Shown here: piece after piece, positions 13,144 through 54,674 of the stretch | How positions within the stretch are numbered: position 1 is the stretch's first letter | How the letters are laid out: each line of letters opens with the position of its first letter | IMG/VR virus record: IMGVR_UViG_3300025858_000016 | Span: 30,010 to 94,009 of that record | Reading direction: 5' to 3' (one strand) | From: a virus | Taxonomy: Duplodnaviria; Caudoviricetes | Length of the DNA: 64,000 nt | Program-made: the position numbers and the translations under genes | The notes under the pieces: model-generated | Databases searched by the model: none | The model's input: only the letters and a program-made list of their open reading frames with translations | Told to the model about the DNA's origin: nothing

Positions 13144-13469
13144 TTTCTTTTAAAGAGTATAGTGAACTATCTAGTCAAGTTTTAATTTACCCTCGTAATA
13201 TAGCCCCACTCTATCTAGCTTTAGGGATTAATGGTGAAGCAGGAGAAGTAGGTGAAAAAGTAAAGAAGGTTTATAGAGACAATGCTGGGATATTTGGAGA
13301 AGAACATATAAATGCAATTAAGAAAGAGATTGGAGATGTATTATGGTATTTGAATCGTCTTTCAGAGGAGTTAGGATTTACTTTAGAAGAAGCTGCTGAA
13401 TTGAATCTTATTAAACTTGAAGATCGTATTCAACGTGAAGTAATTCAAAGTTCTGGTGATGATCGTTAA
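13140..13469 (+). CDS. MazG-like nucleotide pyrophosphohydrolase
   Basis: LGINGEAGEVGEKVKK...KEIGDVLWY. Confidence 0.88.
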   Translation: MISFKEYSELSSQVLIYPRNIAPLYLALGINGEAGEVGEKVKKVYRDNAGIFGEEHINAIKKEIGDVLWYLNRLSEELGFTLEEAAELNLIKLEDRIQREVIQSSGDDR

Positions 13470-30006: not shown

Positions 30007-30039
30007 TCATTCAAACATTAATTAAAAAAACTTAAGATC

Positions 30040-52757: not shown

Positions 52758-52849
52758 TGGAAGCAATGTTGACAATAGTTGTATTCGTTGCACTGGTAAT
52801 TGGTGCATTTTCAAGTGTCGATCCTATTGAAGTAGATGACGAGTTATGA
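52757..52849 (+). CDS. 30-aa membrane peptide (not in the track)
   Basis: MEAMLTIVVFVALVIGAFSSVDPIEVDDEL; start and stop overlap both neighbours. Confidence 0.5.
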   Translation: MEAMLTIVVFVALVIGAFSSVDPIEVDDEL

Positions 52850-53031
52850 AAATTAATAAAGAAGAATTAGACAAATTGAGTATGGCAGATTTTATAAAGA
52901 GGAAAAAGGAGATTGAAGCACATAATGCAAAGTTATCTGGTCTGATGGTGAAATTGGTAGACACGATAGACTTAAAATCTATTACTCATAGCGAGTGTGC
53001 CAGTTCGACTCTGGCTCAGACTACAAAATAA
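52846..53031 (+). CDS. hypothetical protein reading through tRNA-Leu
   Basis: ATGA-coupled start; 3' half overlaps the tRNA. Confidence 0.4.
   Translation: MKINKEELDKLSMADFIKRKKEIEAHNAKLSGLMVKLVDTIDLKSITHSECASSTLAQTTK
52939..53023 (+). tRNA. tRNA-Leu(TAA)
   Basis: GGTCTGA/TCAGACT acceptor, TGGTGAAATTGGTAGACAC, ATAGA-CTTAAAA-TCTAT, long variable arm, GCCAGTTCGACTCTGGC. Confidence 0.93.
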
Positions 53032-53290
53032 GTTCTTTGAAATTCCTGATTGAAGCAAACAAATTATAGAGCCTGCTTGGTACGACATATAGTCAAAAGT
53101 TATAATTAGACCTCTTGCAAAGGTCGTTGTTTGTGGATAGATAAAAGTTGACAAAGTGTTACATATTCAGTTGTCCAGATGCTCGGCGCAACCGACGGTG
53201 GGTAGCAGACTGTAGATTAGACTCAGATATGTATCACAGAGGTTAATGTATTATTCCGTAGGCATAACGGTCAGGAATTTTTAAAGGACT
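53030..53290 (+). ncRNA. unassigned ~260-nt multibranch structured RNA (RNA-1)
   Basis: Closing stem AATTCCTGA/TCAGGAATT, many internal helices, no ORF, higher GC than the genome. Confidence 0.7.
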
Positions 53291-53291
53291 A

Positions 53292-53680
53292 AAGTTCTTT
53301 GAATAATTGAAAATCTTTGGCTAAACATTGATCCTTTGTGAATAAAACTATCTCACAATAGTAATTATCTGTGTCATGCGCATGTCGCTTGTAAGTAAGC
53401 TAAAACTGGCAGATAGATTCACATAAAGATGATAATCCTGAATTGACAGGATGTTGAATATGCAACATACGATGGCAGAAATGCTGATAGGAGTTGTAGG
53501 CGTAAAAACATCAATGGAGTAATCCTATACGTGTTGTTCCCTTGAGAAAGGATACCATGATTCAATTCTTGATATGTAAAAATGGCATATCCAACACGAA
53601 TGAGTTCTCAGCATGACCCTACTACTCTCGTAAGAGATACGTGGAATAAATTTCAGTGAGTCTGAAGATAGAGGGTGCTA
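53292..53680 (+). ncRNA. unassigned ~370-390-nt ornate RNA with two predicted pseudoknots (RNA-2)
   Basis: About 10 helices, GNRA tetraloops, TGAGAA/TTCTCA loop pairing; no ORF. Confidence 0.72.
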
Positions 53681-53703
53681 AAACAATTTATAAAACAAAT
53701 ATT

Positions 53704-54021
53704 ATGACAACAGATAAATTAGAAAAAGCTAATGAATTAAAGAAGACTATTGATGACTATAAGAATAGAATTCGAGCATCAGTTTCTTTCAGGGATGAGA
53801 CATGTTCTTTAGTTAAGGACTGTTCTTTAAGTATTCAGACAGTTGTTGTGACTAAAGAAGGTGGGAAAGAATATACATCTGATAATTTTGGGACTGCTAA
53901 TGGTATATCTGAAGAATTAAAAAAGAAAGTAGTTGAAGAGATTCAAGAATGTGCTATTCGTATTGCAAGGATTTTTGAGAGAGAGATTAAGCATTTGGAA
54001 GAAGAATTCGAATCACTTTAG
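53704..54021 (+). CDS. hypothetical protein
   Basis: ATG at 53704 (the track's GTG start lies within RNA-2). Confidence 0.6.
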   Translation: MTTDKLEKANELKKTIDDYKNRIRASVSFRDETCSLVKDCSLSIQTVVVTKEGGKEYTSDNFGTANGISEELKKKVVEEIQECAIRIARIFEREIKHLEEEFESL

Positions 54022-54059
54022 GATTTTTAAATAAAGTGATTAGTAAAGTTCTTTGAAGA

Positions 54060-54125
54060 TATTGTTATATTGTTGACGTTATTTGTAACTATGTTTGGAC
54101 CGGGGTTCGATTCCCCGCAGCTCCA
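54060..54125 (+). ncRNA. ssrA: tmRNA acceptor piece (permuted gene)
   Basis: GGAC-CGGGG-TTCGATT-CCCCG-CAGCTCC-A; upstream part is complementary to the coding piece. Confidence 0.9.
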
Positions 54126-54155
54126 CATAATTCGCCTAATGCGTAATCGGTGAAC

Positions 54156-54289
54156 AGATAATAAACGATGTTGTTCTCGAGAAGAACTGAGGAAAGTTTG
54201 ATCCAAGAAGTAACCCATAATCCAGGGAGAGGTGGTTTTTTATATTTTTTTATACCCACCAGATGATGCCAGGTGATCGTTTATTATCT
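54156..54289 (+). ncRNA. structured RNA nested in the tmRNA intervening segment (RNA-3)
   Basis: Perfect 14-bp closing stem, three internal hairpins, GAGGAAAGT motif. Confidence 0.6.
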
Positions 54290-54297
54290 TCTTATTA

Positions 54298-54454
54298 GGG
54301 GCTGACTGGTTTAGACAGCATAAGTTGTGGATAAAAGAGATATAACAGTGCAAAATAGATGGCAACATCTTTACACAAAAACAGGAAATGAGATTAGCTG
54401 CATAAGCTGAATTTTATTTCTGATTAGGGTGGCCTGTCTAAGATAGACCACCCT
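54298..54454 (+). ncRNA. ssrA: tmRNA coding piece; tag (A)GNIFTQKQEMRLAA at 54361-54405
   Basis: 5' GGGGCTG pairs with CAGCTCC including G3-U70; tag frame ends LAA-TAA inside a hairpin. Confidence 0.9.
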
Positions 54455-54463
54455 TCTTATTTA
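54426..54463 (+). terminator. terminator hairpin ending the RNA island
   Basis: AGGGTGG.CTGTC-TAA-GATAG.CCACCCT then TCTTATTT. Confidence 0.7.
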
Positions 54464-54520
54464 TAATGAATAAAAATTAATGATAAATATAAAAGTTATA
54501 TTTATTTTTATTAATTTTAT
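54459..54520 (+). promoter_or_regulatory. degenerate promoter module
   Basis: ATTTATAATGAATAAAAAT-TAATGATA ... TATTAATTTTA. Confidence 0.5.
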
Positions 54521-54536
54521 GGCGTTAAAATAGAAT

Positions 54537-54674
54537 ATGAAAAAATATCATAAAATGAAGAAATATTGGGAAGCCATTTTAATGGTAAATTTGAATAAAT
54601 TGTTTAATGCTCCTAATTATTATTATACTTGGTGGCAAGTCAGATTAGATATGATTAAGAAAGGGTTGATATGA
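54537..54674 (+). CDS. small hypothetical protein (45 aa, not in the track)
   Basis: MKKYHKMKKYWEAILMV...; stop overlaps the next ATG. Confidence 0.45.
   Translation: MKKYHKMKKYWEAILMVNLNKLFNAPNYYYTWWQVRLDMIKKGLI

Follow-up and report, generated by a model that had tools for sequence, protein, structure and literature searches.

The intervening sequence of a permuted phage tmRNA gene is a structured spacer with one small motif of possible function

The segment is the intervening sequence of a two-piece tmRNA gene

Positions 54126-54297 of a 64,000-nt stretch of virus DNA (hereafter the window; positions 30,010 to 94,009 of the IMG/VR virus record IMGVR_UViG_3300025858_000016) are the intervening sequence (IVS) of a circularly permuted, or two-piece, transfer-messenger RNA (tmRNA) gene. 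The source record, which belongs to an uncultured phage from activated sludge, is 94 kb long, has ~30% G+C and carries all its genes on one strand. ARAGORN reports a permuted tmRNA at 54035-54496, and the Rfam model RF04321 (tmRNA_permuted) matches 54066-54405 with 62.3 bits against a threshold of 47, leaving 54126-54297 as an unmodelled insertion in the alignment. Because the last base of the acceptor 3′ strand (CAGCTCC) is 54124, followed by the discriminator A54125, while GGGGCTG starts at 54298, the segment corresponds exactly to the IVS of the gene. An original prediction, made from the letters of the window, had called this stretch the intervening segment of a permuted tmRNA, with a folded part ending 8 nt before the 5′ end of the coding piece, where RNase P is predicted to cut; both statements agree with the ARAGORN and RF04321 results and with the start of the coding piece at G54298. 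Overall, we regard the IVS as a structured and probably excised spacer, unexceptional among those already known, in which one small motif may have a function.

Both permuted tmRNA genes with their IVSs (PMC11915505) and two-piece tmRNAs of phages, 53 of which were counted in phage genomes (PMC9004378), have been described before. As in the alphaproteobacterial, betaproteobacterial and cyanobacterial permuted tmRNAs of RF04321, the IVS lies between the 3′ and 5′ strands of the acceptor stem; in those genes it is by definition absent from the mature RNA, flanked by tRNA-processing sites and very variable in length (PMC11915505). The phage genes compared here differ from these three bacterial lineages and are closer, in their 5′ end GGGGCTGAYTGGTTTWGAC and in tags beginning with G, to one-piece tmRNAs whose tags are of the GENNYALAA type; in the window, unlike in the bacterial lineages, CCA is not encoded and the IVS is long (172 nt) with a 14-bp perfect closing stem. 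The OM43 phage Melnitz and the pelagimyophages likewise carry a permuted tmRNA amid small RNA genes in phages of an aquatic or engineered-water habitat; the Melnitz gene, however, is of the alphaproteobacterial type with a glutamine riboswitch linked in its 3′ domain, whereas no riboswitch was found here, and IVS structure is not described in that study (PMC9004378).

The IVS of the window contains a small hairpin (TTCGCC/GGTGAA) and, behind it, a domain closed by a perfect 14-bp stem that encloses GTTCT/AGAAC, CCC/GGG and GGTGG/CCACC stems and two short motifs, all as the original prediction had described (Table 1). In the hairpin, 54131-54136 pairs with 54149-54154 over 6 bp including one G.U pair; it is weakened on the minus strand and, because of the G.U pair, is specific to the plus strand. 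The closing stem is far beyond chance, as the longest perfect stem in 100 dinucleotide-preserving shuffles had a mean of 6.6 bp and a maximum of 9 bp. Within the closed domain, GTTCT/AGAAC is part of a palindrome at 54170-54187. When the precursor was folded over 54060-54460 (z = -4.45), P2, the T-arm and the 7-bp acceptor stem all formed and the IVS folded independently above the acceptor stem, with an additional 4-bp leader/trailer helix between AUAA (54127-54130) and UUAU (54292-54295). On the plus strand of the IVS, we found no sigma-70-like promoter or intrinsic terminator, in a scan that excludes Bacteroidota-type promoters.

The original prediction had also seen in the closed domain an echo of the order of P3, CR-I, P15, P18 and CR-IV in the catalytic domain of RNase P RNA, and this part of it did not hold. 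A permissive-filter Rfam scan of 53950-54550 gave no match to an RNase P family or to any ribozyme at E ≤ 10, and a search with RF00010 over the whole 94-kb record returned nothing at E ≤ 10, whereas the same search was positive in 11 of 14 control genomes. The neighboring non-coding stretch 52800-53750 has no Rfam match to RNase P RNA, and in the window region the only Rfam matches were the tmRNA itself and chance-level ones, with no riboswitch and no self-cleaving ribozyme among them. The two motifs are as frequent as expected by chance: the window has a single copy of the CR-I-like octamer GAGGAAAG, where 2.8 would be expected, and 9 copies of the putative CR-IV motif AGATGATG, where 4.7 would be expected. 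The octamer also occurs in the IVS of the nearest relative found, the permuted tmRNA locus L030, and we estimate the chance that two 170-nt sequences share some octamer at ~1/3. In comparison with bacterial RNase P RNAs of type A (RF00010) and type B (RF00011), the IVS shares the octamer, which is the core of CR-I, and hairpins that follow one another in a roughly comparable order; it lacks a covariance match, the partner strand of P4, CR-V and the specificity domain. The original prediction had itself found no P4 3′ strand, CR-V or S-domain, and none appeared in our folds. Moreover, the closed domain measures ~134 nt, about one third of the model length, and is not conserved between related phages: no similar domain occurs in L030, in IMG/VR or in the 2.77 Mb of loci fetched, which include 31 further unique IVSs of permuted tmRNAs, from phage contigs in nearly all cases. 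The IVS thus has no detectable relation to RNase P RNA, and the likeness is one of short-motif pattern-matching.

Public sequencing runs place the stretch in activated-sludge and wastewater metagenomes. It is unchanged in a second DNA sample (run X2, record 6), and a ~98% relative in run X3 has only two differences in the IVS, 54129 A to G and 54133 C to T, of which the second replaces C-G by U.G in the hairpin stem, where the two bases still pair. Contigs of X2 and X3 over 54127/8-54320 show 19-20 differences and 7 gaps (~88% identity), and a contig over 54044-54150, possibly from a different genome, is ~81% identical; it takes in the upstream flank, the whole acceptor piece and 25 nt at the start of the IVS. 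At the RNA level, the activated-sludge metatranscriptome X5 (record 31) holds an exact 206-nt contig, 54067-54272, that joins the acceptor piece to most of the IVS, and the flanking open reading frames (ORFs) have no cover in this run. This contig fits an unprocessed precursor. Neither X5 nor a second such metatranscriptome, X4, has a contig covering the coding piece from 54298 onward, an absence that carries no evidential weight.

Table 1. Features of the permuted tmRNA gene and of its intervening sequence (window positions)
Feature	Position	Strand	Description and basis
12-mer AAGTTCTTTGAA	54046-54057	+	just 5′ of the acceptor piece
tmRNA acceptor piece	54066-54125	+	P2 3′ strand, T-arm, acceptor 3′ strand, discriminator; RF04321, ARAGORN, direct reading
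Acceptor 3′ strand CAGCTCC	54118-54124	+	direct reading
Discriminator A	54125	+	CCA not encoded
Intervening sequence (IVS), "RNA-3"	54126-54297	+	172 nt, between the two acceptor strands
Conserved hairpin UUCGCC / 12-nt loop UAAUGCGUAAUC / GGUGAA	54131-54154	+	minimum free energy (MFE) and centroid folds
Closing stem, 5′ arm AGATAATAAACGAT	54156-54169	+	perfect 14 bp
32-codon ORF (MLFSRRTEES...)	54168-54266	+	judged non-coding
Closed-domain interior	54170-54275	+	three weak hairpins: GUUCU/AGAAC, CCC/GGG, GGUGG/CCACC (U-rich loop); MFE fold
CR-I-like octamer GAGGAAAG	54189-54196	+	direct match
Putative CR-IV motif AGATGATG	54261-54268	+	direct match
Closing stem, 3′ arm ATCGTTTATTATCT	54276-54289	+	perfect 14 bp, 106 nt between arms
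8-nt A/U leader UCUUAUUA	54290-54297	+	precedes predicted RNase P site 54297/54298; direct reading
tmRNA coding piece	54298-54455	+	starts at G54298; ARAGORN, Rfam
Acceptor 5′ strand GGGGCUG (DNA GGGGCTG)	from 54298	+	opens the coding piece
Tag reading frame (GNIFTQKQEMRLAA*)	54361-54405	+	within the coding piece
Terminal hairpin	54426-54454	+	3′ end of the coding piece

A conserved hairpin and a common layout of phage spacers

L030 and the window have in common a 145-aa protein (80% identical) and the motif GTTCTTTGAA 5′ of the tmRNA. Their IVSs are of nearly the same length (171 nt in L030, 172 nt in the window), and the tRNA-like parts of the two genes align, while the IVSs do not, except for a 23-nt block at window positions 54128-54150 (TAATTCGCCTAATGCGTAATCGG, against TAATTAGCCCAATGCGTAATCGG in L030) in which 21 of the 23 letters are identical; the local alignment score of this block is 36, compared with a maximum of 24 in shuffles. 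The stem of the hairpin is kept in L030 through a double change of C-G to A-U and a change of G.U to G-C, and its 12-nt loop is conserved (YAAUGCGUAAUC). Both phages present the hairpin, then a long-stem domain and then an 8-9-nt leader, L030 having an extra domain before the hairpin. Aligning the spacers of homologous phage tmRNAs, as the original prediction had proposed as a check on conservation, gave a divided answer, with the hairpin block conserved and the remainder of the IVS unalignable. Since only this first hairpin of the IVS shows conservation across phages, it may be a specific processing or protein-binding signal. A search with the pattern CCYAATGCGTAATCGG matched four loci besides L030, all of them chance matches in coding DNA. 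JGI data include a 76.5-kb relative. In other searches for close relatives, the phage GenBank collection gave no match, an exact 22-mer was absent from IMG/VR viral contigs, the flanking 388-aa and 117-aa proteins had no match in IMG/VR, and the flanking 121-aa protein fell only in its own 3-member cluster.

Pattern scans of IMG/VR, JGI metagenomes and GTDB genomes yielded 32 unique IVSs including that of the window, with few exceptions on phage contigs; the tmRNAs concerned are permuted and have in common the T-arm and acceptor sequence and a coding piece starting GGGGCTG.... Fifteen other genes of this kind were checked; all of them pass the Rfam threshold and carry IVSs, 4 are not from viral contigs, and no ribozyme, riboswitch or other Rfam family was found inside these 15 IVSs at gathering thresholds. 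The tags of the phage-type set begin with G (GK.., GN..), and the same 5′-end pattern also matched one-piece tmRNAs with GENNYALAA-type tags. Across the 32 IVSs, whose lengths range from 40 to 346 nt, the layout consists of a 5′ tail (median 2 nt), a folded body and a single-stranded A/U-rich leader (median 5 nt, ~5-9 nt); this leader measures 8 nt in the window, L050, L055 and L340, 9 nt in L030, L031 and L044, and 10 nt in L319. Folding gave z between -2 and -5 in 12 of the 17 unique IVSs tested. The IVS of the window is a typical member of this phage set.

The pair L050 and L055, which are closely related phage tmRNAs, is informative about which parts of an IVS are retained. Their 10-bp closing stems are identical (GTAACTAACA / TGTTAGTTAC) and their trailer hairpins are identical but for one wobble change, whereas the ~40-nt interior is largely replaced, with an inner hairpin kept via a compensatory change (AAGGCA/TGCCTT to ATGGCA/TGCCAT). 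Identical closing stems around diverged interiors suggest that the closing helices matter and that the interiors are free to vary; the interior of this pair behaves like an exchangeable or fast-evolving cassette.

A second, smaller element was seen in a subset of the phage IVSs, in which a mini hairpin (4-6 bp; a 4-6-nt loop with GCC, often CGCCA or GCCAA) stands right after the acceptor 3′ end, within the first ~20 nt after CTCCAC (L043, L171, L340, L041, L050, L055, L029, L110, L143 and L037). Its stem sequence varies by phage, and it is formed in 10 of 13 GCC-bearing trailers, with a per-sequence chance of 0.5-17%. The window retains the letters UUCGCC and not the mini hairpin. The same hexamer lies at most 10 nt from CCA in many alphaproteobacterial permuted tmRNAs, in a scan whose pattern itself required the hexamer. 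It is purely speculative that a GCC-containing loop might mimic, for RNase P, the CCA at a 3′ end. We also considered UUCGCC as the exact complement of GGCGAA, since GGC GAA would specify Gly-Glu, with which tags of the GENNYALAA type begin; the idea was dropped, as the phage tags start GGC AAN. The IVS of L351 carries a second T-arm-like element, GAGGTTCGACTCCTC.

Proposed maturation of the tmRNA and competing explanations

Based on this fold, we propose that the gene would be transcribed as one precursor in which the IVS forms a compact Y-shaped cap atop the 7-bp acceptor stem, composed of the short leader/trailer helix, the 6-bp hairpin with its 12-nt loop and the 14-bp-closed domain, while the 8-nt leader before G54298 would stay largely single-stranded. 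Such a cap may keep the two acceptor strands in contact, allowing the tRNA-like domain to form and the tRNA-maturation enzymes of the host to act. RNase P would then cut at 54297/54298, and an RNase Z-type cut or exonucleolytic trimming would occur after A54125, followed by addition of CCA, since CCA is not encoded; the two tmRNA pieces would be released and the IVS freed as a by-product. We consider an excised IVS of a permuted phage tmRNA, with a fold that aids maturation, the best explanation of the whole, with a probability of about two in three (0.68). The suggestions of the original prediction that the segment is a cis-acting element aiding processing, or an RNA released by maturation, are reasonable ones. 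Several observations weigh against our explanation. Folded alone, the plus strand of the IVS has an MFE of -37.6 kcal/mol, which is unexceptional (z = -1.24 or -1.48). The large domain is free of G.U pairs and the minus strand folds at least as well (z = -2.74), and for these reasons the 14-bp stem could be an inverted repeat at the DNA level rather than a selected RNA helix. The RNA contig of X5 is an assembly at a depth of 4.3 in which no ends, strand or processing are visible. Finally, the helper role of the fold and the identity of the enzymes are inferred, as are the sites of cleavage and what becomes of the IVS.

The main competitor retains the excision and changes the enzyme: the 14-bp helix would be the site of a double-strand-specific nuclease of the RNase III type that severs the precursor, with RNase P and 3′ trimming tidying the ends. 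In fragmented 23S rRNAs, RNase III removes IVSs that are likewise transcribed spacers with a long closing helix, cut from the precursor of a stable RNA without religation. In favor of this, the perfect stem is far beyond chance, and long helices ending 8-9 nt before G1 recur in other phages, as an imperfect hairpin of 16-19 bp in L030 and as the 10-bp stem of L050 and L055, where the closing stem is identical and the interior different. On the other hand, 14 bp, and 10 bp even more so, is short compared with the classical substrate of about two helical turns, stems never exceed 5-7 bp in many phage IVSs, the data show no ends inside the stem, and in Caulobacter-type two-piece tmRNAs the tRNA-type enzymes alone suffice (PMC11915505). 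We therefore hold an RNase III-type excision to be unlikely. Only slightly less probable is that the ~172-nt IVS, once released by RNase Z-type and RNase P cuts and protected by its stem, serves as a functional small RNA (sRNA) whose conserved loop binds a host or phage protein, or an RNA. Excised spacers do occasionally act in trans, as in the case of the tRNA spacer 3′ETS-leuZ, which acts as an sRNA sponge and is another transcribed spacer to which the IVS bears a likeness. In agreement with such a role, the hairpin and its loop are conserved, with compensatory stem changes, in two IVSs that are otherwise unalignable, the ends of the IVS are tucked beside helices in the precursor fold, the IVS is present in a contig from an RNA library, and the ~88% relatives can be aligned over the whole IVS, compared with ~81% for the contig over 54044-54150, which may come from a different genome. 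Against it, the X5 contig joins the IVS to the acceptor piece and so represents precursor rather than free IVS, and the rest of the IVS is unconserved in L030. Matches to the complement of the loop on the plus strand need 2 mismatches, and their number (15 found, 8.7 expected) is near chance; no convincing complementary target was found in the window.

A gene for a small protein is a more doubtful proposal still. Here ribosomes would read the 32-codon ORF of the IVS on the precursor, and the 14-bp stem would pair the start region of the ORF with the sequence behind its stop codon. In favor of this, the AUG overlaps the inner end of the 5′ arm, the stop codon (54264-54266) is 9 nt before the 3′ arm, and the sequence 5′ of the ORF is A-rich, as at the Shine-Dalgarno-less gene starts of this phage. 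Its codon score, however, is 0.008 per codon, compared with 0.41 +/- 0.14 in the genes of the phage itself, and lies below that of 99.7% of 32-codon genic windows; 7% of shuffled IVSs hold an ORF at least as long. The peptide is absent from a collection of 15 billion proteins, phmmer returned only repetitive stretches of 265-1054-aa proteins and no small-protein homologues, the ORF includes a low-complexity U-run, and L030 has nothing equivalent. Codon usage, the shuffles and the database searches led us to reject it as a gene. Least probable of all, and to our mind very improbable, is that the segment is an RNase P-like ribozyme, a decoy for RnpA or the remnant of a mobile element bounded by 14-bp terminal inverted repeats. 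The resemblance of GAGGAAAG to CR-I and its recurrence in the L030 IVS speak for the first two, and are countered by the negative covariance searches, by the one-in-three estimate for a common octamer and, for a ribozyme, by the absence of the P4 3′ strand, CR-V and the S-domain. For a mobile element, it can be said that a perfect 14-bp inverted repeat pairs on either strand and that a repetitive element, as well as a tRNA-Ala, has been reported inside tmRNA IVSs (PMC11915505). A second copy is, however, absent from the 94-kb record, from IMG/VR and from the fetched loci, the flanks GTGAAC and TCTTAT are not duplicated and so give no target-site duplication, and the alignment of the relatives over 54127-54320 extends past both repeats.

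Neighboring RNAs, the host, and what the spacer means

The tmRNA gene lies among other presumptive stable RNAs. The motif GTTCTTTGAA has three plus-strand copies in the window (53032, 53294 and 54048) against 0.31 expected, and these directly precede "RNA-1", "RNA-2" and the tmRNA acceptor piece. In L030, the same motif is found as GTGTTCTTTGAAATATTG between a tRNA and the tmRNA acceptor piece (~13187-13196, minus strand). GTTCTTTGAA, like the 12-mer AAGTTCTTTGAA, may be a processing or transcription signal common to neighboring stable RNAs. The abundance of RNA-2 (53326-53668, non-coding) is the most striking feature nearby, more so than the IVS. This RNA is extremely abundant in the two activated-sludge metatranscriptomes, with a summed word depth of 11,448 in X5 and 759 in X4 compared with ~20-110 in the DNA run X2, and exact RNA contigs cover 53326-53453 (322x), 53426-53545 (370-553x) and 53523-53668 (218x). 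It has many diverged relatives, with variable inserts at 53452-53513 and 53552-53592, and no Rfam family at E ≤ 5; it looks like a widespread, highly expressed and undescribed RNA family. Between RNA-2 and the tmRNA, the 121-aa ORF (53673-54045) is a strain-variable insert, being absent from the ~98% relative in X3 (record 12), where 128 other letters stand instead and the tmRNA is retained with its IVS. Just after the tmRNA terminator, an AT-rich sequence (54454-54494) has 4 more copies in the 94-kb record, at record (G000) positions 68188, 74935, 59920 and 81853, with 82-91% identity, and may be a repeated promoter or regulatory element.

The host of the phage is probably a member of the Bacteroidota. 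In each of the phage tRNA-Arg, tRNA-Leu and tmRNA genes, CA comes after the discriminator and CCA is not encoded, and only 3 of the 62 ORFs of at least 100 codons in the window are preceded by a Shine-Dalgarno-like motif, the regions 5′ of the ORFs being A-rich with maxima at -13 and -3. The lack of encoded CCA and the scarcity of Shine-Dalgarno motifs are consistent with a Bacteroidota host; tags of the GENNYALAA type are typical of that phylum. Ten neighboring proteins have almost no PHROG or Pfam matches, which indicates a very novel phage.

A true relation to RNase P would have meant a minimal ribozyme or decoy lying within its own substrate, which would be remarkable; as it stands, the case is a caution against seeing short ribozyme-core motifs in AT-rich spacers. 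If the IVS were instead to act as an sRNA, tmRNA maturation would double as the biogenesis of a second functional RNA. The common layout of the phage IVSs and the conserved hairpin are modest additions that we did not find described in the literature searched. Permuted phage tmRNAs of this type have long and usually well-structured spacers that follow a common layout, and the hairpin block provides a concrete, testable candidate signal for the maturation of two-piece tmRNAs, a process little studied outside Caulobacter.

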